A stretch of 64,000 bases of DNA, from assembly GCA_963827685.1 (NCBI GenBank), contig CAWHBU010000006.1, forward strand, positions 416,001 to 480,000, in the 5' to 3' direction. A program made the translations under genes and the position numbers. The stretch comes from an uncultured delta proteobacterium (GTDB taxonomy: Bacteria > Desulfobacterota > BSN033 > UBA1163). The notes beneath the pieces were generated by a model. That model was given only the letters and a program-made list of their open reading frames with translations. It searched no databases and was not told the origin of the DNA. Every line of letters begins with the position of its first letter. Within the stretch, counting starts at the first letter, position 1. Below, in pieces: positions 7,752 to 23,791 of the stretch.

Positions 7752-9152
7752 TCACTTTAGTTCACTTAATGGTCTTATTCTTGGTCTTTTCATTCTTCCC
7801 ACTAATGCCCACAAGGGTCCTCGGATTCGAAATCTTCGTATTTGCTCTATCAGATTTTGCGTGATGTTGATCTCCAATCCGGGCACGATCCACCGCTTTC
7901 TCGCAAGGGCTTTCTCCTGAATGATTTTGCTCAGTCTTCCTCCCAGTTTCGGCGAAATATAAAAATGAGGATAGATGAGATCAGAATCCTGACGGATGAC
8001 CCCTTGAGAAAGGGAGATTCGCTCCATTTCCGTTCCCGGATAGATTCGGATACCCAACATGGTAATGACCGCCGTGGGATCGAGTTGATCCATCAAATGG
8101 AAAGACTCTTCAATCGTCTCTTCGTCTTCGCCTGGCCCTCCGAACAGGAGATAGTGGCACTGATTCACCATCAATTTTGAACAGATTTTTGAGGATTGGA
8201 TGATATCCTCCTGAGTGAATGACTTCTTATAATTCTCAAGCATCCGCGGAGACCCTGAATCCGTTCCGAATTCGATCCCATCACACCCGGCCTCTTTCAT
8301 CCAATGTAATAGCGTCTCGTTCAGAAAACTCGGGTTAACAAAAGCACTCCATTTGACATCGATCTTTTTCCGAACTATGTCACGGCATAAAGCTTCGGCA
8401 TCGGAGGGTGGATAATTAAAAATGTCGTCAACAAAGTAGACGTAATCCACTCCCTCCTCCACGAGGTGTCGAATTTCCTCTACCACCTCATCCGTCTTTC
8501 TCAGCCTGACCTTTTTCCCTTCTAACAAAGGGTAAGTGCAGTAGATACAGGAGAAAGGGCAGCCTCGCTTCGTCTGAATATTTCCCATCCCTCCTTCTTC
8601 TAAATAACGGTGCGTTTCGAAGAAACTCCGATCAGGATCCTGGATGGGAAAGACCCGAGCTCCTTCTATCAAAGGAGGAAAAGGCTTCTCTTTAATAAGG
8701 ACATTAGGAGATGGGGAGATGGAGTCACCCTTTTCAAGACTCCTCACTAATTGCAGGAAGACTTCTTCCCCTTCTCCTACAATCCCAAAATCGACATCTA
8801 AATGTTGAAGAAGCTCCTTGGGGGCCAAAGAATATCCCGACCCTCCGATGACCAATCGTGATGAAGTGAATTGACGACAGATCCCAATGACCTCCTCCAC
8901 CCCTTTGAGATAAGAGATGGAGGTCGGATAGGTGAGATTATCGAGATTTCTCAGGGAGATGCCGATCAGGTCGGGTTGAAAGCGATGAAGGGTGTTGTTG
9001 AGATCAACCGGTACCTCTTGAGAAAAACAGAGGTCGACGACTTCAATCGGATGGCCTTCCTCTCTTAATGCCTTGGCGATGTAAGCCAACCCCAGAGGAA
9101 AGACAGGAAAAGGCATCCTCTCACGGTTGACGGAGATGAGGAGAATTTTCAT
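7752..9152 (-). CDS. Lipid biosynthesis B12-binding/radical SAM protein (resembles ladderane-cluster family TIGR04072)
   Basis: MKILLISVNRERMPFPVFPLGLAY, GISLRNLDN, QTKRGCPFSCIYC. Confidence 0.8.
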   Translation of the reverse strand: MKILLISVNRERMPFPVFPLGLAYIAKALREEGHPIEVVDLCFSQEVPVDLNNTLHRFQPDLIGISLRNLDNLTYPTSISYLKGVEEVIGICRQFTSSRLVIGGSGYSLAPKELLQHLDVDFGIVGEGEEVFLQLVRSLEKGDSISPSPNVLIKEKPFPPLIEGARVFPIQDPDRSFFETHRYLEEGGMGNIQTKRGCPFSCIYCTYPLLEGKKVRLRKTDEVVEEIRHLVEEGVDYVYFVDDIFNYPPSDAEALCRDIVRKKIDVKWSAFVNPSFLNETLLHWMKEAGCDGIEFGTDSGSPRMLENYKKSFTQEDIIQSSKICSKLMVNQCHYLLFGGPGEDEETIEESFHLMDQLDPTAVITMLGIRIYPGTEMERISLSQGVIRQDSDLIYPHFYISPKLGGRLSKIIQEKALARKRWIVPGLEINITQNLIEQIRRFRIRGPLWALVGRMKRPRIRPLSELK

Positions 9153-10536
9153 AAGGAAGTTCTTTATCTTTGATCCTTCGAATCACCTCCATCTGGGCAC
9201 CCCGTAGGACGAAGTTTGACATCAAGAAATAAAAGAAGTGATGCCTGGGGCCCCAGACCAGGCGTTTTAATATGGATCGAGGGGCGCAGGTATATTTCTG
9301 TGCCCAGAGGTATCCGTCTTGGAGTTCCTGGACGGTCATCTTTTTGGGCTCGAAGACCACATGACTCATGTCATAATGGGACCAGTCACGGTTGAAGATC
9401 CTCCCTTCTTCCTCCAATCGCTTTTGGAGGGGAGTTCCCGGAAAGGGGGTGAGAATGGAGAAGGTGGGAAGTTCGATATTGTTCTTCTGAACAAATTCGA
9501 CCGTTTCTCTAAAAACGTTTGGTGTATCTCCGTCGAATCCAAAGATGAAAGAACCGTGAATTCCTATTTGGTGGTCCTGAATTCTTTTGATCCAATTTGA
9601 TAATTCTTTCGCATTCACAAATCGTTTTGAAACGCCGTCCAGATTCTCCTGAAGAAGAGACTCAAAACCGATGAAGAGGGAAATACAGCCGCTCTCTTGA
9701 GCCTTCTTGAGAAGCTCCTCATTCGTGGCGATCTTGATGGTCGTAAACCCCATCCACCTGACTCCGTGATGTTTAAAGATATCGAAGAGGCCACGGGCAT
9801 AGTCCTCTTTTGCCGTCACGTTGTCATCCGCTAAAAAGAGATATTCCCCTTTCTTCTTGATGATCATGGAGAGTTCTTGATCCACTTCCTCAAGGGGGCG
9901 GAGCCGATAACGCTTCCCATTGATGATCGGAACAGAGCAAAATTCGCACCGGTTCGGACAACCCCGGGTGGTTTCGATCGCTTTAAAGAAGGGACGGTAA
10001 TGTTTGCTCAGAAGATCCCGCCTGGGAAGGGGCATCCCATTTAAATCCGCCCACTCTCGATTTTTATAAAAAGGTTTGAGTTCCCCTGCCTCAAAGTCTT
10101 GCAGAACTTTCTCAAACATCCGCTCTGCCTCTCCGACAAAGACGGAATCAGCATGCTCCTTTGCCTCCTCGGGCAAATGGCTGGGGTGGACGCCTCCCAA
10201 AATTACTTTGACTCCCCTCTCACGAAAACGATCCGCAATCGTGTAGGCTCTTTTTATCACGCAGGTCAGACCGGTGATCCCTACCAAATCAACATCGGCG
10301 TTGAAATCGACCTTTTCAATCGCCTCGTTAATGATCTTAACCTCATAGGCTTTGGGAAAGAGAGAGGCGAGAAGGGTGAGGCCTAATATGGGGAAAGGGT
10401 AAAGTGCGTCATTAGAAAACTTAATCCCTTTCTCCCGAGGAAAGATAAGAAGAACCTTTTTGGAAGACGAAGTTCGGGGTTCGGAGTTTGGAGTTCGGAG
10501 TAAAAACCCAATATCTTCTTTTTCTTTCCTTTTCAT
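9121..10536 (-). CDS. B12-binding radical SAM protein
   Basis: GGVHPS...GEAE, TTRGCPNRCEFC; paralogous to 4923-6269; start uncertain because it lies in a heptamer repeat region. Confidence 0.88.
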   Translation of the reverse strand: MKRKEKEDIGFLLRTPNSEPRTSSSKKVLLIFPREKGIKFSNDALYPFPILGLTLLASLFPKAYEVKIINEAIEKVDFNADVDLVGITGLTCVIKRAYTIADRFRERGVKVILGGVHPSHLPEEAKEHADSVFVGEAERMFEKVLQDFEAGELKPFYKNREWADLNGMPLPRRDLLSKHYRPFFKAIETTRGCPNRCEFCSVPIINGKRYRLRPLEEVDQELSMIIKKKGEYLFLADDNVTAKEDYARGLFDIFKHHGVRWMGFTTIKIATNEELLKKAQESGCISLFIGFESLLQENLDGVSKRFVNAKELSNWIKRIQDHQIGIHGSFIFGFDGDTPNVFRETVEFVQKNNIELPTFSILTPFPGTPLQKRLEEEGRIFNRDWSHYDMSHVVFEPKKMTVQELQDGYLWAQKYTCAPRSILKRLVWGPRHHFFYFLMSNFVLRGAQMEVIRRIKDKELPYENSPHLRQP

Positions 10537-10613
10537 TATTGCATTCCGTGTTCTGTTTTCTGTTCTCAGCTTTAAGATTGATCTCCGAACTCCGAACTCA
10601 TGACTCCGAACTG

Positions 10614-12032
10614 TTAATCCATATTCGGTTGTTTCCAGGGCCTCTTCGTTGCATTCTCCCAAACATAGCGGAGGATGAGCCGGTAGGCCATTCGTTTGAA
10701 AGGATTCGGGTTGAAGAAAGCACCCAGGAGGATCCTCGGTTGGGTGTAATATTTTTTCAGATAGACCTGTTGGAGATGATGAACCTCCTCAGCAGATAAG
10801 AAATTCGTATTCACGACAGGGTGCATGAAATCATATTTACCCAAATCCCTTTCCCGAATCCTCCTCAATCGTTCTGCCTCTTCAAAGTATTTTGTTCCGG
10901 GAAGGGGCGTAGTCAGGGTGAGGACCAAGAAGTCGCTCTGAGACTTGACAAATTGGAAAACCTGCTTGATCGTCTCCTCGGAGTCATTCCAATCTCCGAC
11001 CATGATGTTGGCCATGACCATGATCTTATTTCTTCTGAGAATATCAATGGCCTTCTGGGCCATCTCTCTGGATTGATGTTTTTCATATCGGTCGAGCACA
11101 TCGGGCTGGATGCTCTCGATTCCCAGCATCACTTCATACAGACCGAGCCGCTTCATCTCAGGAATGAGATCTTCATCTCGAAGGATATCCTTGATTCGGG
11201 ATTGAAACCAGAAATGGATACGAAGATGTGACTTCCCCAATTCGTCAAGAAACTCCTCCACCCGCTTCCGACTCCAGTTGAAGGTATTCTCGTTGAAGAC
11301 AAAGAGGGTTTTGCCGTATTGACGGTGTAGATGGGAAATCTCCTCCACGATCTTCTTGCCGCTCCGTCCCCTCCAGACCCCTTCCCAGAATCTGGACTCA
11401 GAACAATAAGCGCATCGATCCCCACAGCCGCGGCTAGTAGAAAGGCCAAAAGTCCTTCTCCCCATTCCATGCCAGTAGTAAGCCTCTTTCTCCATATCAA
11501 TGAGATGGTAGGCTGGAAGAGGAAGGGAGTCTAAATTTGGAATGGGAGGTTGCCTTTCGTTGAGAACGACTTTTCCATTCTCCCGATAAGCGATACTTTT
11601 TACTCCTCTCCCTTTGCCACCTCTAGATAGGTCCTGAAGGAATTGAGAAAAGGCGATCTCCCCTTCGCCTAAGACAATGCAGTCCAGTTCCTTCAACTCC
11701 TGAAGGATGGTTTCGGCCATCAGGGTGAAGTGGCTTCCTCCTGCTACGATGATGGAATTTGGCGAAAGTTTTCGACAGAGACGAATGGTCTGAATGGCCT
11801 CCGGCGAGAGGCAGGTAGCAGAACAGGTGATGCCGATGACATTGGCTCTGGATGTGGAAACGGCAGTCTCAAGATCTTTCCAGGGGGCCGGAAGAGCAGT
11901 GGCATCAATGATTTGAACTTCGTTCCCTTCTCTTTCTAAATAAGCGCCTAATTGGAGGAGACCAAAAGAAGGGGTCCACATCCGAAGGCCTGGAAAGAGT
12001 TTATGCGGCGGATCGATCAGAAGAACCTTCAT
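10614..12032 (-). CDS. B12-binding radical SAM protein (BchE-like)
   Basis: GGSHF...GEGE, SRGCGDRCAYC, TPLPGT. Confidence 0.88.
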   Translation of the reverse strand: MKVLLIDPPHKLFPGLRMWTPSFGLLQLGAYLEREGNEVQIIDATALPAPWKDLETAVSTSRANVIGITCSATCLSPEAIQTIRLCRKLSPNSIIVAGGSHFTLMAETILQELKELDCIVLGEGEIAFSQFLQDLSRGGKGRGVKSIAYRENGKVVLNERQPPIPNLDSLPLPAYHLIDMEKEAYYWHGMGRRTFGLSTSRGCGDRCAYCSESRFWEGVWRGRSGKKIVEEISHLHRQYGKTLFVFNENTFNWSRKRVEEFLDELGKSHLRIHFWFQSRIKDILRDEDLIPEMKRLGLYEVMLGIESIQPDVLDRYEKHQSREMAQKAIDILRRNKIMVMANIMVGDWNDSEETIKQVFQFVKSQSDFLVLTLTTPLPGTKYFEEAERLRRIRERDLGKYDFMHPVVNTNFLSAEEVHHLQQVYLKKYYTQPRILLGAFFNPNPFKRMAYRLILRYVWENATKRPWKQPNMD

Positions 12033-12040
12033 ATTTTCTT

Positions 12041-12141
12041 GTAGCGCCCCCATTGATTGGGGGCGAATGTTCTCGTCGGCATTAAATGCCGACGCTACAT
12101 GAATTTTATTAAAAAACGTAGCCCCCCATTTACTGGGGGCG
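12041..12141. repeat. GTAG-family REP cluster downstream of the RAYT gene
   Basis: GTAG-CGCCCCCA..TGGGGGCG, inverted CGTCGGCA..TGCCGACG-CTAC, third copy at 12118. Confidence 0.85.
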
Positions 12142-12143
12142 AA

Positions 12144-12650
12144 TCAGAGATATCTTTTTATCTCCACATCGAACGATTCACTATATGGATAGTCACCTGC
12201 ATTCTCTACAATGCCTTTTCTAACCGGGTTATTCCGAATATACTCGATGACCCCTTTCAAATTTTCCTCTGTTCTGATGACATGGTCAAAAGCAGATTTT
12301 TGCCATACCTTCTTTAAGTCTTTCCTTTCCCTGAAGACTGCCGTTGTTCTCCCTTTAAAAATATTCAGAAATTTGGACAGTGGAAGAGTCGACTCGCCGG
12401 GAGATACGATAACATGGAGATGGTCAGGCATTAGGCAATAACATAGCATTCTGAATCTAACATCTTTTGCTGCTTTTAATAGTTCATCGATCACAATCTT
12501 CGCATTGATCTCTGAATCAAAAATATTTTTCTTATTATCCATGCAGACGGTCACATGGACAGGTCGATCTTTTGAATAATCATAATTGGGTAACCTATTA
12601 GAACGGCTCTTCCTCCATGTTTTATATTGTTCCTTAGCTTTTGTTTCCAT
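12144..12650 (-). CDS. REP-associated tyrosine transposase (RAYT/TnpA-REP, Y1 HUH)
   Basis: YCLMPDHLH (HUH), WQKSAFDHVIR, YIRNNPVRKG; flanked by REPs. Confidence 0.9.
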   Translation of the reverse strand: METKAKEQYKTWRKSRSNRLPNYDYSKDRPVHVTVCMDNKKNIFDSEINAKIVIDELLKAAKDVRFRMLCYCLMPDHLHVIVSPGESTLPLSKFLNIFKGRTTAVFRERKDLKKVWQKSAFDHVIRTEENLKGVIEYIRNNPVRKGIVENAGDYPYSESFDVEIKRYL

Positions 12651-12655
12651 GCTTT

Positions 12656-12713
12656 GTAGCGCCCTCATTTATTGCGGGCGAGTATCTCCGTCGGCAGTAA
12701 ATGCCGACGCTAC
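12656..12713. repeat. GTAG REP doublet upstream of the RAYT gene
   Basis: GTAGCGCCCTCA..TGCGGGCG plus CGTCGGCAGTAAATGCCGACGCTAC. Confidence 0.85.
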
Positions 12714-13132
12714 ACCTCCAAATACTTTCGCATCGCCTCGATTCTTTCAAACACCTCCGGAGGAACTCGGTAGAGAAGATTCCCTTTAAGATCGGTGAGG
12801 ACATGCGTGGTGGATCCTGTAGCGAGAACCTTTCTGTTTTCTTGATCAAGGACCCGGTAGTGAAAGATCAGCTTGGCCACCTCGGTTTTCTCCATTGTCG
12901 TCTGGATGACGAGGGAAGCACCGAAGGCGGCTGGGAGCTTAAACTGGCAGTTTAATTCCACCACCGGTGCCAAGAAATTCATCTCCTTGAGCTGAAGCGG
13001 ACCCATTTGAAATCGCTGGGTCAGATCATTTCGACCCGCCTCAAACCAACCCACATAGTGACCATGCCAAGCCACTCCATAAGCATCCACTTCATAAAAA
13101 CGAACCTGGAGGGATGTCTCATGGTATTTCAT
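12710..13132 (-). CDS. Acyl-CoA/ACP thioesterase (YbgC/4HBT hotdog fold)
   Basis: VRFYEVDAYGVAWHGHYVGWFEAGR. Confidence 0.88.
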   Translation of the reverse strand: MKYHETSLQVRFYEVDAYGVAWHGHYVGWFEAGRNDLTQRFQMGPLQLKEMNFLAPVVELNCQFKLPAAFGASLVIQTTMEKTEVAKLIFHYRVLDQENRKVLATGSTTHVLTDLKGNLLYRVPPEVFERIEAMRKYLEV

Positions 13133-13133
13133 C

Positions 13134-14057
13134 TTACATCCTTTCCAGTAAATGATCCCCGGCAGAAAACGCCTCTGCCTCCCGATCAATCCATCGCATC
13201 AATTTCGTAAGCGTTGCTTCATGTCCCACTTCGACGAATCGGGTAAACCCTTCCTCAAGCAAGTTCTCCACACATCGGATCCAATACACCGGTCGCCCGA
13301 TCTCTTGCGAGAGAAAATCTTTGATCTCCTCTCTTCTCAAAGGTTTGATCGTCCAATGATTGAGGATGGGAACTTTGAGGGGTTGAATCGTGATCTCTTG
13401 GAGGATCTCCATGATCTCTTCCCTCAAAGAATAGAGCAAAGGGGAATGAAGAGCCGTATTGAAGGCAAGACGGGTGGCGGAGACGGCCTTCCTGGAAAGG
13501 GCAAGAGAAATCGCCTTGTCCACACCCCCATCCTCTCCCGAAAGGACGAAATGCATCGAGCCATTATAATTGGCGATGGAGAGTTGAAACCCGTTAAGGT
13601 CTTGACAGATCTTTTTGACTTCCTCTAAGGGGAGACCGATGATGCTGGCCATGCCTCCTCGGTGAATCGCCCCTTCTCTTTTGAGGAGCCGGCCGATGGC
13701 CTCCGTGATAAAGAGCCCCTCTTCAAAACTAATGGCTTCCGAGGCAGACAGTGCTGCATAGATTCCCATACTATGTTCTGCAAAAATATCCGGATTCCAT
13801 CCTGCGGCTCGAAGACGATAGAAGTGGGCCATAGAAAGGATGTAGGTCGAGATCTGAAGCTTAAGGCTGAAATCCTCTTCTTTCTCCTCACCCCTGAACG
13901 AGAAGTTGAGGAGGTCGAATTTCGTCTGGTTGGAAGCCCTTGCTAATAACCCTTTAAAATGTGGATTCTCCATCAGGGGACCATGATCTTCCAAGATCGG
14001 CTTCTCTCGAAGTTGGCCGGGAAAGCAAAAAGCCGTTTTCCCTTTTGGTGTTCTCAT
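13134..14057 (-). CDS. FabD-like ACP acyltransferase (atypical)
   Basis: FCFPGQ, EHSMG, IANYN, ALHS, PVYW. Confidence 0.85.
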   Translation of the reverse strand: MRTPKGKTAFCFPGQLREKPILEDHGPLMENPHFKGLLARASNQTKFDLLNFSFRGEEKEEDFSLKLQISTYILSMAHFYRLRAAGWNPDIFAEHSMGIYAALSASEAISFEEGLFITEAIGRLLKREGAIHRGGMASIIGLPLEEVKKICQDLNGFQLSIANYNGSMHFVLSGEDGGVDKAISLALSRKAVSATRLAFNTALHSPLLYSLREEIMEILQEITIQPLKVPILNHWTIKPLRREEIKDFLSQEIGRPVYWIRCVENLLEEGFTRFVEVGHEATLTKLMRWIDREAEAFSAGDHLLERM

Positions 14058-14326
14058 GCGGTCCCCTGATGTTCTAAAACATATCGGGCCATGGTTCTCA
14101 CGGACTGAAAGACTTTTTTCCCCACCTCAGCATCGGGAATGATGACTCCAAATTCTTTCTCCAAGCCCAGGACGAGTTCAAGGGCATCGATAGAGTCCAG
14201 TCCGAGGCCCTCACCGAAGAGAGGGGCATCGGTCTCGATCATCTCGGGGGTCATGTCCGCAAGTTTTAATCTCTGGATGATGAGCTCTTTAATCTTTTCG
14301 ATCAGATGATCATTCGGTTCAACCAT
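14054..14326 (-). CDS. Acyl carrier protein
   Basis: PLFGEGLGLDSIDALEL phosphopantetheine motif, of the aryl-polyene/ladderane-cluster ACP type. Confidence 0.92.
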   Translation of the reverse strand: MVEPNDHLIEKIKELIIQRLKLADMTPEMIETDAPLFGEGLGLDSIDALELVLGLEKEFGVIIPDAEVGKKVFQSVRTMARYVLEHQGTA

Positions 14327-14445: not shown

Positions 14446-15357
14446 TTATTCATTCCAATAAGAATAGAAATTATACCATTGATCTGGATATTTTTCGATA
14501 TAGCCTTCAAATTTTTTGATCAATCTTTCCATCCCCTCTCGAATGACAGCCTCCCGATCCTTTCTCGAAGAGGGACTAAAATAGATAGGGGGTTCAATGA
14601 TTCCTCTATACTTTCGATTTCTCTCCATCACGACGAAGACCGGTAAAACCGGGGCTTCCGTGGCCATAGCGAGAATGGCGACCCCGATGGGAAAGGCCGT
14701 CTTCTTCCCAAAGAAATCGAAGACCATGGTCTTTTGAGACTCTATCCGATCTCCTAACATGGCCAGGATTTCGTTCCGTCGAAGAGCTTTGACGGCATCC
14801 AAAACAGCCATCGGAGAGTCGTCCTTCGGATTGATATAGAGATTTTTTATTCCTCTTCTTCTTCTCATCTCCTCTCGAAAGGACCTGGTATCCAAATCTC
14901 TCTCATCGAGGGTGAGGACATTAAGCTTTCCTCCTTTAAAGGAGAAGAGCAATCCCCCGATCTCCCAATTCCCAAGATGAGGCGTGATGCAGATCACTCC
15001 TTTTCCGGCACGAAGGGCCTCCATCATATAATCCGCTCCCACCTCTTCTTCAACCCATCGGTTTTTATTCGACGGACGGAGGCGATGCATCACCATATAA
15101 TCCAAAAGGTATTGGCCGTAGTTCTGGAAAGTCTTGCGCGTTAAGACATCCACTCTTTCCTTTGACCACCTTCCTCTGCTCACTCCTTCAATATTTTTTC
15201 GGACACGGGCTCTCGTCTTTTTCATCAGAAAGTAAAAGAGATCTCCCACGACCACACTGAAGAATTTCTGGATCGACCGGGGGATGAGCGTCGAGCAGAA
15301 CTGGAAGAGGAAGAGGTATATAAACCGATTAAGAGATCGGGGGTGACGTTTTTCCAT
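14446..15357 (-). CDS. LpxL/HtrB-family (lysophospholipid) acyltransferase
   Basis: TPHLGNWE, LGDR, FFGK, YPDQWY. Confidence 0.88.
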   Translation of the reverse strand: MEKRHPRSLNRFIYLFLFQFCSTLIPRSIQKFFSVVVGDLFYFLMKKTRARVRKNIEGVSRGRWSKERVDVLTRKTFQNYGQYLLDYMVMHRLRPSNKNRWVEEEVGADYMMEALRAGKGVICITPHLGNWEIGGLLFSFKGGKLNVLTLDERDLDTRSFREEMRRRRGIKNLYINPKDDSPMAVLDAVKALRRNEILAMLGDRIESQKTMVFDFFGKKTAFPIGVAILAMATEAPVLPVFVVMERNRKYRGIIEPPIYFSPSSRKDREAVIREGMERLIKKFEGYIEKYPDQWYNFYSYWNE

Positions 15358-15358
15358 T

Positions 15359-16729
15359 TTAACCCCCGAAGTAGTCTCTTAGAAAACCAAGAAGCGTCCG
15401 GATACCCAAACGATGTTTCTTGATGTGATGCCAGATGTCCTGAATCGCCTTTTTCGATCGGGTATAGTAAAGGAGATGCGCCTTGAGCAGAAGCCATTCC
15501 ATTCGAATAAAAGAGAGATGATCGTGTTTGAAAACCAAATGCTGCATATCAAAGAAGGACCAGGGCGATCTCCATTTGAAGATCCGGTCCTTCACCTGCT
15601 GATAGATGGCTGTTCCCGGATAAGGGGTGAGGATGGCGAACTGGGCCACATTCGTATCGAGCTGTTTCGCAAAACGGATGGTGTCATGGATCGTCTTGAC
15701 GGTATCATGGAGCCCTCCCAGGATATAGGAGGCATGAATTTCCAGGCTATTCCGTTTTAGCATCTCTACAGTCCGAACGGTTTCCTCCACATCTATCCCC
15801 TTTCTCAACTCTTCGAGGGTTCTCGGACTGGAGGATTCCACTCCGATGAAAACCGATTTTGCCCCTGCCCTGACCATCTCTTTAACCATTTCTTCATTTC
15901 GAAGCAGGAGGTCTATCCTGGATAGGCACCACCACCAGAGGTCAAGTTTCTTTTCAACGATCCCATGGCAAATTTCAATCACTCTCTTCGGAATGAGGTT
16001 AAAGGTGTCATCCACAAAGGCGACGGCATTAAAATGATATCGGTGATAGACCTCTTCGAGTTCCTTTAAAACAGAGGCCACACTTCTGGCCCTAATTTTT
16101 GTTCCCCAAAAATGGGAGGAAGCACAAAAAACACATTGATAGGGACACCCACGGCTCGTGATCAAAGGGGTGATGGGGCGGTCTCCAATTTTTGTCCTTT
16201 GATAATCGTCGATATGGATGAGATGTCTGGCAGGAAGGGGGAGACTGTCGAGATTTTCAATGAAGGGTCTGGGAGGGGTTCGGACAAGTTTTCCGCTTGA
16301 AAAGAAACTGATTCCCTGGATCGAATCGAATTGACCATCTTTCTTCTCTAAAGCAGCGACCAATGCCGAAAAGGTAACCTCCCCTTCTCCTCGGACGATG
16401 AAATCAACCCTTTTGGTCGCAAGGATTTCTTCATCCACATAGCCGGGGTGTGGCCCACCTATCACAACCGTGCAACCGTTTGCCTTGGCTCTCTTAGCTA
16501 ATTGGAGAGCCTGACGATGGCGGGTCGTATCCGTGGAGATGCCGACCAGGTCATATTTCTTAAAATCGATCTCCTCCTTCTTCCTACGAACAGCCAAATC
16601 CCTGACCACAACCTGCTGTCCGTCCCTTTCCGCATAAGCAGCGACATAGAGAAGGCCAAGAGGCGGAAAAAGAACCCCTGTTGCTTTCAGAGTCCCTGTG
16701 GGAGCAGGATTGATTAACAAGATATTCAC
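15359..16729 (-). CDS. B12-binding radical SAM protein
   Basis: PPLGLLY, GGPHP..GEGE, TSRGCPYQCVFC, TPYPGT. Confidence 0.9.
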   Translation of the reverse strand: MNILLINPAPTGTLKATGVLFPPLGLLYVAAYAERDGQQVVVRDLAVRRKKEEIDFKKYDLVGISTDTTRHRQALQLAKRAKANGCTVVIGGPHPGYVDEEILATKRVDFIVRGEGEVTFSALVAALEKKDGQFDSIQGISFFSSGKLVRTPPRPFIENLDSLPLPARHLIHIDDYQRTKIGDRPITPLITSRGCPYQCVFCASSHFWGTKIRARSVASVLKELEEVYHRYHFNAVAFVDDTFNLIPKRVIEICHGIVEKKLDLWWWCLSRIDLLLRNEEMVKEMVRAGAKSVFIGVESSSPRTLEELRKGIDVEETVRTVEMLKRNSLEIHASYILGGLHDTVKTIHDTIRFAKQLDTNVAQFAILTPYPGTAIYQQVKDRIFKWRSPWSFFDMQHLVFKHDHLSFIRMEWLLLKAHLLYYTRSKKAIQDIWHHIKKHRLGIRTLLGFLRDYFGG

Positions 16730-16935: not shown

Positions 16936-17892
16936 CTATGCTTTCTCGGAAAGCCGATACCGCTCGCAGAGGTCTCCCCAGCAGGCCACCACTTGATGGT
17001 CCACGAGAAGCTCAATCACCTCACATTGATTTCCACACTCCCCGCAATCAAATCCCCGTGTAGAACAGGACTTTCGGAGAAGGTCAAATCCCCTAAATTG
17101 GGTTTTGGAGAGTTTGGCCCTTTTTACCAATTTAGCTGCGCCGATAGCACCCATGACATCGAAATCTTTCGGAATGACGAGAGAGACATCCAGTTCCCTT
17201 TCGAGCGCTTTTCGGATACCTCGATTTGCTGCGACGCCGCCTTGGAAGACAATGGGAAAGAGGATTTCTTTCCCCCGGCAGACATTATTCAGATAATTCT
17301 TCACCAGGGAGTCACAGAGGCCAGCTACGATATCCTCAACAGAATGTCCGATCTGTTGCTTATGAATCATATCTGTCTCGGCAAAAACCGTGCATCGTCC
17401 CGCGATCCGGACGGGGTGATGGGCCTTGAGAGCAAGATCCCCAAAGGCTTCGATGGAGATCCCGAGTCTGGCGGCTTGTTGATCTAAAAAAGATCCTGTG
17501 CCTGCTGCGCAGACCGTATTCATGGCGAAGTCGACCACAACGCCATTTCTCAGCACGATGACCTTGGAATCCTGCCCACCGATTTCGATGATGGTCTTTG
17601 CCTCGGGGAGAAAGTCAATTACGGCAATGGCATGGGCGGTAATCTCATTTTTGATCAGATCGCCCCCCACCAAATAGCCGGCCAAATGTCGGGCGCTGCC
17701 GGTCGTGGCGACTCCGTCGATGGGAACGGCTTTCCCTAATTGAGTCAGGATTTCCTCCATCCCTTGCTGAATGGCTTCAATGGGCCGGCCACTGTTGCGA
17801 ATATACGACTTGGCTAAAACTTGGTCGTGTTCGTTCATTACCACCAACTTGGTGGTAATGGACCCGACATCAATGCCTAAATAATTTGCCAT
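16936..17892 (-). CDS. Acyl-CoA dehydratase activase (BcrAD/BadFG ATPase), PlsA/Ger-like activation module
   Basis: GIDVGSITTK, EIGGQDSK, MNTVCAAGTGSFLD, RCTVFAE; C-terminal CGECGNQC...GDLCERY. Confidence 0.9.
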   Translation of the reverse strand: MANYLGIDVGSITTKLVVMNEHDQVLAKSYIRNSGRPIEAIQQGMEEILTQLGKAVPIDGVATTGSARHLAGYLVGGDLIKNEITAHAIAVIDFLPEAKTIIEIGGQDSKVIVLRNGVVVDFAMNTVCAAGTGSFLDQQAARLGISIEAFGDLALKAHHPVRIAGRCTVFAETDMIHKQQIGHSVEDIVAGLCDSLVKNYLNNVCRGKEILFPIVFQGGVAANRGIRKALERELDVSLVIPKDFDVMGAIGAAKLVKRAKLSKTQFRGFDLLRKSCSTRGFDCGECGNQCEVIELLVDHQVVACWGDLCERYRLSEKA

Positions 17893-17903
17893 GGTAAGAA
17901 TTT

Positions 17904-17987
17904 GTAGCGCCTCCATTTACTGGAGGCGAAATCCTAAAATCCCGTCGGCAATACCTGCCTGCCGGCAGGCAGGAATGCCGACGCTAC
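17904..17987. repeat. GTAG REP doublet with nested CCTGCCTGCCGGCAGGCAGG palindrome
   Basis: Same REP family as at 12041 and 12656; 20-bp palindrome at 17954-17973 sits in the loop of the second REP. Confidence 0.85.
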
Positions 17988-18002
17988 TCTATTTGAACTT
18001 TG

Positions 18003-19082
18003 TCATTTACCATTAATTTGAGCTTTGACATTTGAACTTCGTAATTTCTTCTGCTCTTCCATCACATCCCGGAACGCCTCCAATCGGGTGGTCAACCCTT
18101 CCCTTCCCGTATGCTCATCGAAAGAGAGAATGAGAAGGGGGATGGATGAGCCACCCCGAACTTTCAACCTTCTCTTGATGAATTCTTGAAGGAGGGCATC
18201 AATGCCACATTTAAAGGAAGTGAGGAAGACCGCCCCATCCACTCCACCGGATAGAAAGTGAAACAGAGACCCCACAATCTCTCTTCCGGATGACCAGTAA
18301 ATCTCTTTGGAAAGGTCAGAAACTTCCCGATCGATTTCCTTTTCAGAGAGGAAATCGGAAGTCGTGATCTCCATCCCTAAACTTTTCGCCAGGGCGAGGA
18401 GATCTTTGTTAATATCGATGTCAAAGAGATTGTAAGGATGGCCGATGAAAGCGACACGCAATGGACTTCCAATTCCTTTCCCTCCCCTTTTTACTGCTTC
18501 CCCCTCCCCTTTATCCCCTCCCACCAAGGGAGGGGAAATTTTGGAGGGAGGCGGTGTGGAAACATCCATTTCAAAGAGTTGCCCGGTGGGAAGTTGGTTG
18601 ATTCGATCCATCCAGTCTCTTTGAAATTTGTTGAAAGAATGCTCCGCCTCTCGAAAGGCTTTCTTGCTCTCCTGCCTCGATGCGCCGAGCCTTTCACCGA
18701 TCTTTAGAAAAGTCTGAAGGAGGGACATTCCCCCTTTTCGAAGATCGATGGTTTCGTCAATGACGGAAACATTTTCTCCCGTGGCAAGCCGCACAATATC
18801 CGGAGCTCCCCGAAACTTTGGACACATGATGTAATTTCGATGAACGCTGACTAATCGAGGGACAAAAAGATGATCCACCTTGTCTTTCAATTGAACGGCA
18901 TGCGTGATCAGAAGTTTCATCGGAAGGCAACTGTCTTCGAAATAGATGATCTTCTCCTTCTGTCTTACCCCGTCGGAAATCATCACCTTCCAACCCAACC
19001 TTTCAAAGAAGGGTCGCCAGAAGGGAAAGTAACGATAAAACATCAGGGCCCTGGGAATGCCTACGCAGCCCTTCTCTTCCAT
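18003..19082 (-). CDS. DUF2229 acyl-CoA dehydratase activase-related protein (reductase module 1)
   Basis: VGIPRALMFY, CLPMK, MCPKFRG, GHPYN, FKCGID, DEHTGREGLTTRLEAF. Confidence 0.85.
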   Translation of the reverse strand: MEEKGCVGIPRALMFYRYFPFWRPFFERLGWKVMISDGVRQKEKIIYFEDSCLPMKLLITHAVQLKDKVDHLFVPRLVSVHRNYIMCPKFRGAPDIVRLATGENVSVIDETIDLRKGGMSLLQTFLKIGERLGASRQESKKAFREAEHSFNKFQRDWMDRINQLPTGQLFEMDVSTPPPSKISPPLVGGDKGEGEAVKRGGKGIGSPLRVAFIGHPYNLFDIDINKDLLALAKSLGMEITTSDFLSEKEIDREVSDLSKEIYWSSGREIVGSLFHFLSGGVDGAVFLTSFKCGIDALLQEFIKRRLKVRGGSSIPLLILSFDEHTGREGLTTRLEAFRDVMEEQKKLRSSNVKAQINGK

Positions 19083-20161
19083 TCCAACATCTCCACGAAG
19101 GCCTCAAGGAGTGTCTGAATGCGGCCTTCGATTTCTTGCTCGTCTAAAATGAGAGTGAGGATAGGAATGTTCCAATCCTTTCCGACTTTTGTCAGGATTC
19201 CTGAAGCCGTGGTCTCCGGCATGCAGGCAAATGGCATGAGATGGACGATCCCATCGTATCCTTCTTTGGATCTCAGGATGGCCTCACCGATGGAGACATT
19301 ACATTCTGCACCCACATCGTAACCCAGATAAGCCTTGGAAGCTTCGAAGAAACGAACCCGTTCTGAAGCTTGATCAGCCTTATTTTTCCGAAGGCTCCTC
19401 AGGATATGCGTGGAGAACCAAGAGGTGCGCGTCACCTCCACGCCCAATTCCCCCAATTTTTGTTCCACTCCTCGATTGATATGGGGATCCATCACCGTGT
19501 AAAGTTCGCCCACAATGGCCACTTTAAACGGGATGCGGGAATGATCTTGCTCCATTTCTTGAAGAAGGACCTTTGCTTCCCGAACCGCTTGTTCAACGGC
19601 TTTCGGATTTTTGGCCTCATCCACCCAGGAGAGCGCCTTCTTCAATCGCTTCTGAGCCTCCCCTTTCTTGATCTCCATGGGCCTGACCTTCATGGTCAAT
19701 CGCTCCAATGCCTCGCAGGCCATCATCTTCTTCCACCCCATCCAAAGTCCGTAAGGGAAGAAGAGGACGTTTTTGGCACTCAATTCTTTTCTCAGCTCCT
19801 TCGTCTCTTCATGATTCTTCCACATGGCCTGCCAAGTCAACCGAGGTGGAATGGTCAGCCATCGATAATGGAGACCCATATCTTCAAGGATGATTTTCTG
19901 GACAAGGTCATAGAGTCCCAGACGACAGGGAGGGCCACTGCCCACCATCACAATGGTATCCGCTCCCATCTGAAGGGCTTCGATGAAATTCCCTAGGATG
20001 AGTTTGAAAGGAAGACAGATACACTCATTCGAGTGGAGGACACCCAGGGTCAGAGTTTTTCGGCTGGTTTCAGGGGGAACAATATAGGGAATGCCGGCGG
20101 TTTCTGCAATCGCCTTGCAAAAGATGTGCATCGAACCCAGATGAGGAAAAGTTACCTTCAT
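19061..20161 (-). CDS. 2-hydroxyacyl-CoA dehydratase-like / PlsR-like protein (reductase module 2)
   Basis: MKVTFPHLG, CLPFKLILGN, PCRLGLY, VGELY, PFACMPE, LEAFVEML. Confidence 0.85.
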   Translation of the reverse strand: MKVTFPHLGSMHIFCKAIAETAGIPYIVPPETSRKTLTLGVLHSNECICLPFKLILGNFIEALQMGADTIVMVGSGPPCRLGLYDLVQKIILEDMGLHYRWLTIPPRLTWQAMWKNHEETKELRKELSAKNVLFFPYGLWMGWKKMMACEALERLTMKVRPMEIKKGEAQKRLKKALSWVDEAKNPKAVEQAVREAKVLLQEMEQDHSRIPFKVAIVGELYTVMDPHINRGVEQKLGELGVEVTRTSWFSTHILRSLRKNKADQASERVRFFEASKAYLGYDVGAECNVSIGEAILRSKEGYDGIVHLMPFACMPETTASGILTKVGKDWNIPILTLILDEQEIEGRIQTLLEAFVEMLEWKRRAA

Positions 20162-21555
20162 CCATGTTTACCCACTACCTTTTTCCTTTCTGAAAGGGGC
20201 TGAGGGTTTAGACCCTCCACTTTTCCCCTCCAGGCAGCCTCTGCAATCTCTCCATAAGTTTTGGCGTAGCTATCGATGGCCTGTGCAAAATCCGTAAAAA
20301 GCTGATCTGCCCCTTCATGGGTAAAGTATTTCGCATGCTGAAGGGCAATTTCCCTACCCTGTTCAGGGTGATCGATCAGAGGACAGGCCCGAAATAAGTT
20401 CTCCGAGAAAGGCTGGCGTGATCGCATTTCCCTGAATAGAGGAGAATTGAGAGCCTCCATGAGAGACTTCTCTTTGATATTGTCAGAGGCAAAATGGCAA
20501 AAGATGCAGGGCTCCACATCCCCGCGGGCATTGACATGAAAGTATTTCCTCCCCGCTGCGATGCATCCCTGAGTGAGACATCCATCATTCCAGAAGTCAA
20601 CGAATAGCATGGGTTTGGTGGCCCGAAAATAGGCGAGCCGCTCCCTCGCCCGGCTCCTCTGTTCAGGAGTCACCATGAGGGAAAGATCGGGGTTTCTTCC
20701 GATGGGGACATAATGGAAGTTCCAGAGAAGAATGCATCCCTTCTCTACCAGAAAATCGACAAAGGCATCGCTCGTCAGGACATCATGATTTCGGGAAGTC
20801 TGTGTCGTGGAGACAGCAAAAAAGATCCCAGCTTCTCTGAGCCCATCCATCACCTGCAGGATTCGATCGAACTGGCCCTGACCCCTTCTCCCGTCGGTTT
20901 CTTCTCTGAGCCCTTCGAGGCTGATCGCGGGAGCGACATTTCCCAGAGCCACAAATCGATCGATCATCTTCTCGTCGATCAATGTGGCGTTGGTATAGAC
21001 TTGGAACATCATATCTTCATGCTTTTCGAAGAGGTCGAAAAGATCCTGCCTCAAGAAGGGTTCTCCACCCGTCATCATGACCAGATGAATGCCCATCTCC
21101 TTACATTCTCCCATTAACCGATCCAGCACCCCGTAAGGAAGATCCTCGTGGGAATAGACCCCTGAATAACATCCATAGCAATTCAGATTGCACCGCATCG
21201 TCGGGCTGATCAACATGGCGTCCGGCGGATAGAATCCCCTCTCTGCCTCAAAGGCCTTTCTCCGGTTGGTACCTACCAGAAGCTGGTTAATGATGAAGTT
21301 GGAGATGAGCTTTTTCCGATGATGGGGGTGTGTCTCGCTGAGCACTCTTCGCGCAATCGCCAGACCAGGATGATCACTTTGGAAAAGAGTGCGAATCCAT
21401 CGAATCTTTTCTCGATAGGATTCCTTTTGAGGAATTTTCTCTGCAAGATGGGTCAGGCGAATCAAATTTTCTGTGGAGGCGTTGGCCAGAAGAGAAAGAG
21501 CGCTCGTCGTGAATTTTCCAATGGAATATCGCTTAGCCCGTTGATAAAAATCCAT
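20158..21555 (-). CDS. Radical SAM protein with SPASM/twitch domain
   Basis: ISPTMRCNLNCYGC, GGEP, DFWNDG, GCIAAGRKYFHVNARGDVEPC, ACPLID. Confidence 0.88.
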   Translation of the reverse strand: MDFYQRAKRYSIGKFTTSALSLLANASTENLIRLTHLAEKIPQKESYREKIRWIRTLFQSDHPGLAIARRVLSETHPHHRKKLISNFIINQLLVGTNRRKAFEAERGFYPPDAMLISPTMRCNLNCYGCYSGVYSHEDLPYGVLDRLMGECKEMGIHLVMMTGGEPFLRQDLFDLFEKHEDMMFQVYTNATLIDEKMIDRFVALGNVAPAISLEGLREETDGRRGQGQFDRILQVMDGLREAGIFFAVSTTQTSRNHDVLTSDAFVDFLVEKGCILLWNFHYVPIGRNPDLSLMVTPEQRSRARERLAYFRATKPMLFVDFWNDGCLTQGCIAAGRKYFHVNARGDVEPCIFCHFASDNIKEKSLMEALNSPLFREMRSRQPFSENLFRACPLIDHPEQGREIALQHAKYFTHEGADQLFTDFAQAIDSYAKTYGEIAEAAWRGKVEGLNPQPLSERKKVVGKHG

Positions 21556-21563
21556 CTTCCTCC

Positions 21564-22244
21564 TCACCAAAACAGACTTCGAAGAAAAAGTTTACAGACC
21601 ATCCAGGTATCGACCACTGGCCTGAAATGGCTGGAACCAGTTCCATCGACCCTTGGTGTATTAATAGGAACAGATAACACACTGAACCTCTTTTTGCAAG
21701 CTTTAATAAGGAGTTCCAATTCTGTCTCAAATCGGGAGGTCGAGAGGTCGACTTTTTTCAGTACTTCTGTCCGAATCAGTCTAAAACCCGACTGACTATC
21801 CGTAATGTCTGCGTGGCAAAGCCGTGCGACGGCCTTCACCCCCAAACGATTCCAGAAGCGACGGAGGAAGGTCATCTTCCCAAATTCTGTAGCCCGAGAG
21901 GCAATGAGGATATCAGGTTTGACGCTTTTGAAAACCTTAAGAAGGGATGGAATTTCTTCAGGATCATGTTGACCATCGGCATCCAGAGTGATGACCACCT
22001 CATAGTCTTTTTGGAGGATATATTGGAATCCCGTCCGGAGGGCAGCACCCTTCCCAAGATTGAGGGGATGCTCCAGGAGTCGGGCTCCATGTTCTGAAAC
22101 CACTCTCTTCGTCTCATCCGAAGATCCGTCATCGACAACAATGATATCCCCCTTCAGAGGTTCAATCTTTTTTAAGACAGAGCCAAGAGTCGCCTGGGCG
22201 TTATAAGCAGGGATGAGGACACAGATCTTCTCTGACCGCTGCAT
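21564..22244 (-). CDS. Glycosyltransferase family 2 (DPM synthase-like)
   Basis: IPAYN, VDDGSSD, NLGKGAAL, LDADGQH, DSQSGFR, SHFRP. Confidence 0.9.
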   Translation of the reverse strand: MQRSEKICVLIPAYNAQATLGSVLKKIEPLKGDIIVVDDGSSDETKRVVSEHGARLLEHPLNLGKGAALRTGFQYILQKDYEVVITLDADGQHDPEEIPSLLKVFKSVKPDILIASRATEFGKMTFLRRFWNRLGVKAVARLCHADITDSQSGFRLIRTEVLKKVDLSTSRFETELELLIKACKKRFSVLSVPINTPRVDGTGSSHFRPVVDTWMVCKLFLRSLFW

Positions 22245-22294
22245 AGAATCTATTGCTTCCGATTTAAGATAACTGTCATATCTTGACCCACAAA

Positions 22295-22430
22295 GCACCA
22301 AATTCCAAGTACCAAGCTCGAAATAAATCTCAATAACCAAAATTCCAAATTCGAAACAAAATTATTTCAGTCATTGGGTTTTGCTAATTGGGATTTGTTT
22401 GTGATTTGCGATTTGGAAATTGGAATTTTC
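22295..22430. repeat. Inverted heptamer tandem arrays
   Basis: AAGCACC/AAATTCC/AAGTACC run followed by TTGGGAT/TTGCGAT/TTGGAAA run. Confidence 0.7.
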
Positions 22431-22493: not shown

Positions 22494-23791
22494 TCACCTT
22501 CTCTCTAAAAATCGTTTCATCTCTGCATCATAGAGAAAGGTGAAAAAGGTTGCAACCGATCCAAGTAGTGGAAGCGGATCATCTCTTGAAAATATATCAT
22601 AGGAGGTATTGGGGTTAGAGAAATCAAAGAAGGGGGGATGAAGATGAAAACGATTGGGATTGTTTAGAAAATGGAGAATATCACCCAACAGGAGCCAGCG
22701 ACAGCGCTTCCCCACTTCATAGTGACGTATGGGTTCGAAACTTTCTCTCCTGGCCATCCTCAAAATAAGGTAGGGAAAATCGACTCCAGAAACAATGGCC
22801 AGTTGCAATGAACCCCAGAAACGGGGATTGAGTTCCATCAGTTTCGGGATTCCATCCCTTGGGTCCACTTTGAATTCAACCATGCCCACGCCGACCCAAT
22901 TTAATGATTTAAGGAGGGAGAGACCTAACTCCATGATCTGAGGATGTTCAACCGCTTCCCGCAATGTGCTGGGACCTCCTTGGACTGGATACATCCTCAA
23001 CTTTTTGTGGACAAAGGCCGCTTTCATGTTCGAAGCCTCGTCAAAAAGGGCAGAGAGCCCAAAGGTCCCCGCTCCATCGGGAATCCATTCCTGAATTAAT
23101 GGAAGAGGATATCGGGCATGGACGCTTTGATAAGAGGAGATGAGATCCTCTCTTTTTTTCACATAGACAATGCCAAAGGAACCGGAGCTAATCCGTGGTT
23201 TAACCACCGCCGGAATTGGAATAGAAGAAAGACTTCCCCCCTCACCCTCCCCTCTCCCACCAGTCGTTGCGACTCGAAACCGAGGGGAGAGGGATAGAGC
23301 ACCGCTGATTCCTCCCTCTTGGAATGGGGGGGAGACTGGCTTCCCTTCCCCTCCCCCTCGAGGGGGAGGGTGCGGGAGGGGGGGACATAAAATGTTCTAG
23401 GGGTAGGAATACCTATTTTCTCCGCAAACCGTAAAAGATTTCCTTTATCCCGAACGAATTCAATCTCTTTCAAATCAGGAATGAGGAGGTAAGTATATTC
23501 AGAGATTTCAGAATGATATTTTGCCAATAAAAGCAGAGTCCCCTCTTCCATCGGGAAGAGGCAATCGTAGTGGTTCTCTCTAATCTCTCTTAGAAGAAAT
23601 TCGATAAATTGATTTGGGGACTGCTGTGGCGAAGGATAGATGAGGCGCCTGGTGCAATATTTCGAAAAGAAGGAGGTATTCAGGAATGTCCGCTCTCCAA
23701 CTGTGACACGAACCCCTTTCCGACCAAGGGATCGAACCACAGCCAATGATTTTCTAAAGTGCCCATCCGTGACCAGAACGCGCATCTTCAT
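22494..23791 (-). pseudogene. ATP-grasp carboxylate-amine ligase, split by a frameshift inside REP insertions
   Basis: N-part RVLVTDG..AVVRSLG..DKG..GIPTP; C-part VVKPRISSGS, IQEWI, VEFK, MELNPRFWGS in a different frame; palindromes at 23235-23385. Confidence 0.8.

Follow-up and report, generated by a model that had tools for sequence, protein, structure and literature searches.

The window analysed here is a 64,000-nt stretch of DNA from an uncultured delta proteobacterium (genome G000, contig C6, positions 416001–480000). Its minus strand carries a gene for an enzyme of the radical S-adenosylmethionine (SAM) type, followed by three genes that match parts of fused reductases of the PlsA/Ger type. 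In window coordinates, these genes and a repeat lying among them are as follows.

21555..20158, minus strand: radical SAM/SPASM enzyme, 465 aa from its ATG; candidate Mss-family lipid C–C coupling enzyme
20161..19061, minus strand: D2 (DUF2229/HGD-D), 366 aa; matches the C-terminal reductase half of fused PlsA/Ger-type proteins
19082..18003, minus strand: D1 (DUF2229), 359 aa; matches the first reductase half of fused PlsA/Ger-type proteins
17916..16936, minus strand: ATP-dependent activase (BcrAD_BadFG), 326 aa; a single domain with a C-terminal four-cysteine tail
17902..17930, no strand: copy of a palindromic repeat resembling repetitive extragenic palindromic (REP) elements, in the D1–activase spacer; 86% identical to the copies that flank a Y1 transposase gene

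The radical SAM gene overlaps D2 by 4 nt and is translationally coupled to the split module; D2 and D1 overlap by 22 nt, and a gap of 86 nt separates D1 from the activase gene. An earlier sequence-only reading of this stretch had described the four minus-strand open reading frames (ORFs) as overlapping or abutting, which these junctions bear out. The motifs it quoted are likewise present in the translations, where we read ISPTMRCNLNCYGC and DFWNDGCLTQGCIAAGR in the radical SAM enzyme and CGECGNQC...GDLCERY in the activase tail. A TTG codon 15 nt upstream of the radical SAM ATG would give a protein of 470 aa. The true start of the activase may be the ATG at 17892, because the REP-like copy at 17902–17930 covers the first codons of the long ORF and six of the eight full-length tier-1 activase alignments start at residue 9.

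Both D subunits match DUF2229 (PF09989) above its cut-off of 29.4 bits (47.4 bits for D2 and 134.8 bits for D1), and both match HGD-D (PF06050) below its cut-off of 28.4 bits (24.8 and 19.5 bits, respectively). Alignment reveals an invariant cysteine triad in each, formed by C49, C79 and C313 in D2 and by C52, C87 and C292 in D1. Profiles of D1 and D2 found no significant sequence match in the Protein Data Bank (PDB), the best being the double-cubane cluster protein (DCCP) with an E-value of 0.014 over 60 residues. The AlphaFold2 model of D1 is of low confidence (predicted local distance difference test score, pLDDT, of 64.4), which makes its fold matches a weak check; its ten best Foldseek matches are all DCCP, HadBC, BzdNO or MbdON, enzymes of the BCR/HAD/DCCP group that include subunits of 2-hydroxyisocaproyl-CoA dehydratase and benzoyl-CoA reductase. 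The activase contains one BcrAD_BadFG domain (PF01869, 165.7 bits) and scores 203.3 bits against TIGR00241, above the cut-off of 125.4. Its sequence matches in the PDB are solved BCR/HAD activators (E-values from 5e-42 to 3e-35), including MbdQ (5e-42), HadI (4e-38) and HgdC. The cluster cysteines C136 and C175 are conserved in an eight-sequence alignment, and the tail cysteines are C291, C294, C298 and C317 (C-x2-C-x3-C...C). Approximately residues 161–204 of D1 (window positions ~18470–18600) form a proline- and glycine-rich, low-complexity insert that varies in length among relatives and has a pLDDT of ~30; contigs from related strains end loose at 18498–18536, within this region.

The same genome also encodes a fused PlsA/Ger-type protein of 1411 aa (contig C1:93892–98127, minus strand), with two BcrAD_BadFG (B) domains and DUF2229 in the order B-B-D1-D2. 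The operon runs D2-D1-B, and the claim that a normally fused enzyme has been split into three genes in reverse order is therefore correct. In tblastn comparisons, the activase is 49% and 50% identical to the two B domains of the fused protein and no more than 37% identical to any of the genome's five other activase-like regions. D1 and D2 are 26% and 24% identical, respectively, to consecutive segments of the fused protein (that of D2 being C1:95082–93937), and alignment shows them to be colinear over their full length with its D1 and D2 halves. The four-cysteine tail occurs in all six split activases aligned and in the linker between the second B domain and the D region of the fused protein, and it is absent from the first B domain; the single activase corresponds in the alignment to the second B domain together with its cysteine-rich linker. 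This agrees with the earlier description of a single-domain activase bearing a linker typical of PlsA/Ger. Together, the Pfam and NCBIfam matches, the colinearity with the fused protein, the cysteines and the shared tail identify D2/D1/activase, at the sequence level, as a system that is split but complete and belongs to the PlsA/Ger branch of the BCR/HAD superfamily. Homology suggests that this module reduces a lipid ester. The gene for the fused protein adjoins one for an oxaloacetate decarboxylase beta subunit and lies ~2.5 kb from a 948-aa ORF for an IS66-type transposase.

The radical SAM enzyme matches the Pfam models Radical_SAM (72.7 bits) and SPASM (PF13186; 36.1 bits, above the cut-off of 21.5). 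About 110 aa at its N terminus form a helical extension, its C-terminal domain is SPASM/twitch-like, and its AlphaFold2 model has a pLDDT of 91.3. The CxxxCxxC motif comprises C122, C126 and C129; among 41 family members, C122, C331, C350 and C391 are invariant, and C126 and C129 nearly so. Because C331, C350 and C391 are the only invariant cysteines of the C-terminal part family-wide, one auxiliary cluster, as in twitch-like domains, is as likely as two. The best generic NCBIfam matches, NirJ2 (106.5 bits) and AhbD (TIGR04545, 88.9 bits), cover the core only, and a search of the ESM Atlas returned generic radical SAM/SPASM clusters only.

The family is large, which is in line with the earlier remark that it is common in anaerobes. 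Cluster representatives at 50% identity number 18914 at E ≤ 1e-3, 3418 at E ≤ 1e-10 and 626 at E ≤ 1e-30, and a scan of genome contigs, queried with an 11-sequence alignment, found at least 600 stretches, at least 595 of them confirmed relatives, of which we examined the best 80 loci. These 80 come from Thermodesulfobacteriota, Nitrospirota, Bacillota, Actinomycetota, Chloroflexota, Atribacterota, Armatimonadota, Caldisericota, Planctomycetota, Spirochaetota, Zixibacteria and Saccharibacteria; Thermotoga and Thermoanaerobacter are not represented among these best 80. Family members are ~450–490 aa long, can be aligned over their full length, including the N-terminal extension, and share 43–55% identity between phyla. 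In a quick tree, whose support values are from the SH-aLRT test only, the window enzyme nests within the family, where it belongs to an 11-row clade supported at 100%.

Several outlying relatives were encountered in these searches. A second radical SAM enzyme of the same genome (C3:1200728–1202068, minus strand, 446 aa) was rejected as a true family member because it lies on a very long branch outside the family and has generic PDB matches only. It is 35% identical to the window enzyme over 278 aa and matches Radical_SAM and Fer4_12 without a SPASM match; its gene has a 239-aa unannotated ORF and a SAM methyltransferase gene downstream and a resistance–nodulation–division efflux system upstream. 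Four Bacillota-class members (L099/G018, L100/G053, L102/G042 and L104/G073) have a single in-frame TGA within frames of 468–634 aa that are open apart from it and may be selenocysteine-containing versions of the enzyme. A tblastn search of a plasmid collection found four distant stand-alone relatives, whose context is uninformative. Stand-alone plasmid members at NZ_CP117576.1:2254–3633 (L116) and NZ_CP077819.1:86681–87955 show 34–35% identity at 91–95% coverage; the hosts are Escherichia albertii and Klebsiella pneumoniae, the plasmids are conjugative or large, and the annotation reads just 'radical SAM protein'.

The pairing of the radical SAM gene with the reductase module recurs in other genomes. 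ORFs homologous to D2 are present in 15 of the 80 loci. Where the radical SAM enzyme is at least 76% identical to that of the window, D2 is present at full length (≥82% identity) in 10 of 12 loci; in the remaining two, the sequence stops 49 nt past the radical SAM gene (L009) or retains a D2 fragment only (L008). A sample of 301 genomes of the phylum contains the radical SAM enzyme in 68 genomes (E ≤ 1e-60) and a D2 match in 17 (E ≤ 1e-15), and in 10 genomes, G000 included, the two lie within 100 nt of each other on the same strand. Nine of the 11 non-self radical SAM matches with at least 59% identity in this sample adjoin D2; of the other two, one has D2-like genes 1.1 kb downstream and one sits on a short contig, with a D2 match starting another contig. 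No radical SAM match of 53% identity or less in the sample shares a contig with a D2 match. The arrangement is not due to chance, and the linkage of the radical SAM gene to the split module is a real, conserved feature.

The form of this linkage varies. A Syntrophobacteraceae-type clade has a D1–D2 fusion of ~740 aa and a separate, convergent activase gene. A Dehalococcoidia metagenome-assembled genome (MAG) has the order radical SAM–D1–D2–activase–PlsX with overlapping genes, and the adjacency to PlsX ties the pair to phospholipid synthesis. Family members of Bacillota, Actinomycetota and Desulfobacterales stand alone beside unrelated or housekeeping genes. In genome G341, which belongs to the same taxonomic family as G000, a second locus (contig C19:36518–43053) has a radical SAM copy of 60% identity and, after it, a pair of D2-like genes (40% and 34% identity), which suggests duplication of the radical SAM–reductase pair.

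Circumstantial evidence makes it very probable that this radical SAM family is the published Mss family, for which homology has been defined by E ≤ 1e-50 and at least 30% identity to WP_129545148.1 of T. ethanolicus. Mss of T. maritima, TM0824, has 482 aa and is annotated as 'Fe-S oxidoreductase', and its next-best paralogue is a 316-aa AhbD/NirJ-like 'heme biosynthesis' radical SAM protein with an E-value of 3e-17 (Table S20, PMC13159169). With its 465 aa and an AhbD/NirJ-like core that bears an extension, the window enzyme is consistent with TM0824, although neither trait is specific; the two share the same generic annotations and an anaerobe-only distribution. The phyla of the best 80 loci overlap the published range of Mss (section 9 of PMC13159169). 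Named family members come from Moorella, Thermosediminibacterales, Thermoanaerobacterales, Halothermothrix (Halanaerobiales) and Humimicrobium; Mss homologues are listed in print for those genera or for their orders or classes, and Humimicrobiia are reported to hold them. The window enzyme differs from published Mss in two respects: published Mss genes are described as standing alone or beside a TetR gene, whereas this gene is in an operon with a split reductase and B12-binding radical SAM enzymes, and it forms its own 11-row clade.

Archaeal Tes (GDGT-MAS) and Gms, which act on lipid tails, resemble the window enzyme in being SPASM/twitch-type radical SAM proteins, and Gms, as far as the available text describes it, also has its own N-terminal extension of ~100 aa ahead of an AhbD-like core. 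We rejected a Tes-like reading: GDGT-MAS (7TOL) is not among the ten PDB sequences that phmmer matches at E ≤ 0.01, and its Foldseek match has a TM-score (query) of 0.39. We also rejected a Gms reading. The match of the window enzyme to the AhbD model spans only positions 7–188 of 339, and Gms, according to the accessible portion of PMC11214058, is 36% identical to AhbD (E-value of 7e-79) and has a COG4001 N-terminal domain. Gms is thus far closer to AhbD than the window enzyme is, which makes this assignment unlikely.

The four genes are part of a longer minus-strand run between 22340 and 6815, in which, as the sequence-only reading had held, genes for B12-binding radical SAM enzymes share the operon. 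The further features of the run, and a disrupted gene ahead of it, are listed below.

23791..22494, minus strand: ATP-grasp gene, disrupted (Pfam ATPgrasp_Ter); overlapping ORFs 23791..23159 and 23207..22494
22340..21564, minus strand: family 2 glycosyltransferase (GT2; Glycos_transf_2, 94.3 bits); resembles polyprenyl-phosphate sugar transferases
16729..15359, minus strand: B12-binding radical SAM enzyme (Pfam B12-binding and Radical_SAM), candidate C-methylase
15357..14446, minus strand: LpxL/PatA-type lipid acyltransferase (Lip_A_acyltrans, 122.3 bits; NCBIfam matches below threshold)
14326..14054, minus strand: dedicated acyl carrier protein (ACP; PP-binding; NF006617, 74.1 bits, above the cut-off of 70)
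14057..13134, minus strand: FabD-like acyltransferase (Acyl_transf_1; TIGR00128, 154.8 bits, below the cut-off)
13189..12710, minus strand: 4HBT-type thioesterase (Pfam 4HBT_2 and 4HBT)
12668..12144, minus strand: IS200/Y1-type transposase gene (Y1_Tnp), in an element at 12039..12714 between the thioesterase and B12-binding radical SAM genes
12053..10614, 10662..9121 and 9152..7752, minus strand: three B12-binding radical SAM enzymes (Pfam)
7561..6815, minus strand: FabG-type 3-oxoacyl-ACP reductase, with which the cluster ends (adh_short_C2; TIGR01830, 300.9 bits, above the cut-off of 297.75)

The GT2 gene ends 8 nt ahead of the radical SAM gene; its NCBIfam matches are AglJ/PpgS-like and fall under their cut-offs. 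Among the four B12-binding enzymes of the operon, that at 9152..7752 scores 392.6 bits against TIGR04072, 'lipid biosynthesis B12-binding/radical SAM protein', above the cut-off of 360, and the other three score 93–120 bits, below it; for the enzyme at 16729..15359, the NCBIfam matches (BchE, HpnJ and HpnR) are all sub-threshold. Gene order is conserved in close relatives. GT2 lies upstream of the radical SAM gene both in the tier-1 loci and in those of Geobacter and Desulfuromonadaceae, and a B12-binding radical SAM gene directly follows the activase gene in most, though not all, close relatives (L006, L007, L012, L013 and L016); LpxL takes this place in L011 and L015, and in L008 a B12 homologue directly follows the D2 fragment. 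Clusters at a greater distance also encode ketosynthases and a dehydratase of the FabA-like kind, together with an MMPL transporter, a CsgG/NHL lipoprotein and a polysaccharide deacetylase.

Taken together, these findings lead us to read the locus, with moderate confidence, as a conserved lipid-tailoring operon of a Thermodesulfobacteriota anaerobe that combines the radical SAM enzyme with a split PlsA/Ger-type module. An activase homodimer, bridged by a [4Fe-4S] cluster at C136 and C175, would spend ATP on driving a low-potential electron into a heterodimer of D1 and D2, in which each subunit would hold an Fe–S cluster on its three conserved cysteines. By reducing its ester carbonyl, D1/D2 would then turn a lipid of the acyl-glycerol type into an alkenyl or alkyl ether, in the manner of PlsA/PlsR and Ger; sequence does not tell a vinyl from an alkyl product (PMC13274423). 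The adjacent radical SAM enzyme would abstract a hydrogen from an unactivated tail carbon and so form a C–C bond between alkyl chains, as Mss does, and the B12-binding enzymes would add methyl branches. ACP, FabD, FabG, thioesterase and LpxL would make the acyl chain or load it onto an acceptor that GT2 may glycosylate, with the ether-forming module and the radical SAM enzyme acting as tailoring steps. The sequences establish what the genes are, their cofactor residues, the conserved adjacency and the sizes of the families, whereas electron transfer, the making of the ether, the coupling of tails and the methylation are functional inferences.

Because the operon contains ACP, FabD, thioesterase, FabG, LpxL and GT2 and its relatives add ketosynthase, a FabA-like dehydratase and MMPL, we favor a dedicated, ACP-dependent and possibly exported lipid over simple remodelling of bulk phospholipid. 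The most likely product would be a dedicated (glyco)lipid with ether links, which may be branched or tail-coupled, and not a bulk phospholipid.

Several observations weigh against this reading. Foldseek places generic SPASM proteins (SuiB, SkfB and anSME) at the top for the radical SAM enzyme, with GDGT-MAS at rank 41, and Mss, PlsA and Ger are likened to the window proteins by description rather than by direct sequence comparison. At L054 (Geobacter) and L021 (Desulfuromonadaceae), the radical SAM gene lies in an ACP/LpxL/B12 cluster without D1, D2 or activase, so this enzyme does not need the reductase. The split architecture with one B domain departs from the 'BBD' pattern reported for alkyl-ether producers, in which one protein has two activation domains and one D domain, as Sahonero-Canavesi et al. 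(2022) describe it for Ger; the operon module has a single B domain in a separate gene, and the BBD protein of this genome is the 1411-aa protein on C1. A homodimer of the single B domain could do the job of two. D1 and D2 are just 24–26% identical to the genome's own canonical fused protein, and their substrate may therefore differ. BCR/HAD enzymes classically use CoA thioesters, and ACP-bound acyl chains are supplied by the operon. Finally, no RNA run is among the listed sequencing runs with near-identical DNA.

The first of the competing explanations, which we regard as somewhat unlikely, concerns the radical SAM enzyme: the family may be functionally mixed, and this member may perform some other radical chemistry on lipids, such as an intramolecular cross-link, cyclisation, desaturation or a head-group modification. 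The size of the family (626 clusters at E ≤ 1e-30) and the presence of two to five copies in some genomes suggest diversification, and in four clades the gene lies in B12-binding radical SAM/ACP clusters of a type once proposed for ladderane or polyunsaturated lipid chemistry. According to published work, moreover, Mss homologues do not always coincide with membrane-spanning lipids. This explanation has to contend with an unusual conservation over the full length, including the N-terminal extension, at 43–55% identity between phyla, and with the same cysteine set in 41 of 41 aligned members. The window enzyme nests within the family, the genome's only paralogue falls far outside it and the circumstantial matches to published Mss speak against this explanation as well.

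A second explanation, which we consider unlikely, assigns a different substrate to the reductase. D2/D1/activase would be a thioester-directed ketyl-radical dehydratase or reductase of the BCR/HAD type that acts on an ACP- or CoA-bound acyl chain, replacing the missing FabZ/FabA or enoyl-reductase step or making an unusual unsaturation. The window operon indeed has ACP, a FabD-like protein, FabG and thioesterase but lacks a dehydratase, an enoyl reductase and a ketosynthase; those relatives of the fold with solved structures are DCCP and enzymes that act on CoA thioesters, and D1/D2 have diverged to 24–26% identity from a canonical PlsA/Ger-type protein that the genome keeps elsewhere. However, both D subunits carry DUF2229, the domain of PlsA/Ger-type fused proteins, and the activase with its four-cysteine tail is specifically of the fused PlsA/Ger type (49–50% identity versus at most 37% to other activases). 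The Dehalococcoidia MAG has the split module and the radical SAM gene beside plsX with no ACP cluster on its 7.4-kb contig, and locus L017 has a FabA-like dehydratase in its cluster yet retains the module.

The sequence-only reading had seen here, if the radical SAM family includes Mss, the toolkit expected for branched, membrane-spanning ether lipids. In this version, the locus would encode an anaerobic toolkit for branched glycerol dialkyl glycerol tetraether (brGDGT)-like lipids made on membrane phospholipids, with Mss-type coupling, Ger-type ether formation and methylation by B12-binding radical SAM enzymes. In its fullest form, Syntrophia-like Thermodesulfobacteriota of peat, wetland and sediment would have a self-contained anaerobic pathway for methyl-branched, ether-linked, tail-coupled lipids, in which an Mss-type radical SAM enzyme is paired with a split Ger-type reductase and the four B12-binding enzymes are the long-sought alkyl-chain C-methylases of brGDGT-like lipids. 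The three enzyme types do occur together in one operon; the co-occurrence of Mss and Ger homologues in Desulfobacterota genomes has been proposed, in the available portion of PMC11868695, as brGDGT potential; and near-identical DNA occurs in freshwater sediment, wetland, peat and sediment runs. We nevertheless find both the general and the fullest form quite improbable. The larger operon, with ACP, FabD-like, thioesterase, FabG, LpxL-type and GT2 genes, and the ketosynthase, FabA-like, MMPL and CsgG/NHL genes of its relatives have the look of a dedicated pathway for a lipid that is possibly exported; for bulk lipids, the genome has a canonical fused PlsA/Ger protein elsewhere; and the methylase function of the B12-binding enzymes is putative. 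Synthesis of brGDGTs is the less likely use of the operon.

That the adjacency is incidental, unrelated genes having been packed together without functional coupling, is highly improbable: most family members (in Bacillota, Actinomycetota and Desulfobacterales) do lie alone beside housekeeping genes, but the gene overlaps of 4 and 22 nt, the persistence of the adjacency down to 59% radical SAM identity and the recurrence of the pairing in three gene orders and two phyla speak against it.

The lipid-tailoring operon that we favor can be set beside known systems. Its module resembles PlsA/PlsR of Clostridium perfringens and Ger of T. maritima (Tmari_0479) and Desulfatibacillum alkenivorans in its BcrAD_BadFG and DUF2229/HGD-D blocks of the BCR/HAD family and in its conserved Fe–S cysteines, and the closest counterparts of its activase are the B domains of the fused PlsA/Ger-type protein that the same genome encodes. 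It differs from them in comprising three genes in the order D2-D1-B with one B domain rather than two, and in being embedded in an ACP/B12-binding radical SAM operon in translational coupling with the radical SAM gene. A two-gene split is already known for C. perfringens PlsA/PlsR (PMC12838417, available text), the BBD arrangement of two B domains and one D in one protein has been described for Ger (PMC13159169, in the portion available), and single-B or B-less architectures are noted in Table S21 of PMC13159169 and in PMC13274423.

A further likeness is to the 'ladderane-type' type II fatty-acid synthase/radical SAM clusters of Kuenenia, Desulfotalea, Geobacter and Pelobacter (Rattray et al. 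2009, PMC2649909), as far as the available text describes them: the last B12-binding enzyme of the window operon passes TIGR04072, and the cluster of the Geobacter MAG at L054, which has polysaccharide deacetylase, GT2, radical SAM, LpxL, ACP, B12-binding radical SAM, thioesterase and ketosynthase genes, resembles the published ones. The window cluster differs in having no ketosynthase or phytoene-desaturase-like gene, and the split PlsA/Ger-type module does not appear in the accessible part of the published cluster description. K. stuttgartiensis has no Mss homologue in Table S21 of PMC13159169.

The co-occurrence of Mss and Ger homologues in Desulfobacterota genomes is already published (PMC11868695, available portion). 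In the texts available to it, our literature search found no account of a physical link between the two, no mss-like gene in an operon with a split PlsA/Ger module and B12-binding radical SAM genes, and no named brGDGT methylase; the supplementary trees of PMC13159169 may already show this clade.

Branched tetraether lipids are widely used climate proxies. To our knowledge, their anaerobic producers and several of the enzymes that make them have yet to be found. The operon of radical SAM enzyme, split reductase and B12-binding radical SAM enzymes is a tangible set of candidate genes for ether or membrane-spanning lipids of an unusual kind, in the form of a compact construct of ~15 kb that can be expressed anaerobically. 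Even if its product is another specialised ether lipid, the locus would show PlsA/Ger machinery split, reordered and recruited into a dedicated ACP-dependent pathway.

Near-identical DNA (at least 0.2 of sampled words) occurs in 15 runs from 9 studies, whose labels read freshwater sediment, wetland, peat, sediment or just 'metagenome'; one of the 15 may be the window's own source sample. In runs X1, X2, X3 and X5, contigs cover 29–30 of 30 bins of the stretch; these contigs are short and come from mixed strains. Their joints have sides of fewer than 30 letters and fall at REP-like repeats, and we conclude nothing from them.

A scan for promoters and terminators gave counts at shuffle expectation (19 versus 18.4 and 27 versus 24.8) and no operon boundaries, and it found a strong hairpin after the transposase gene. 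Relatives keep the ATP-grasp gene as a conserved upstream part of the cluster, and in L017, too, such a gene lies upstream of the radical SAM gene. In the 91%-related locus L006, it is a single ORF of 403 aa, to which the two window ORFs align at residues 21–158 (ORF1) and 167–403 (ORF2); the homologous parts are separated by ~160 nt, as against eight residues at that place in L006. The disrupted gene may be a pseudogene or an assembly fault. On the plus strand beyond FabG lie genes for a fifth B12-binding radical SAM enzyme (4923–6269) and a class I SAM methyltransferase (3934–4563).

The transposase gene is flanked by 61-nt REP-like palindromic repeats at 12039–12099 and 12654–12714, which are 85% alike, and further copies lie at 12115–12143 and, as listed above, in the D1–activase spacer. 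The transposase and its repeats are a system of the RAYT/REP-like kind inside the operon. L006 likewise has this transposase gene behind the thioesterase gene, and L012 has no room for it.

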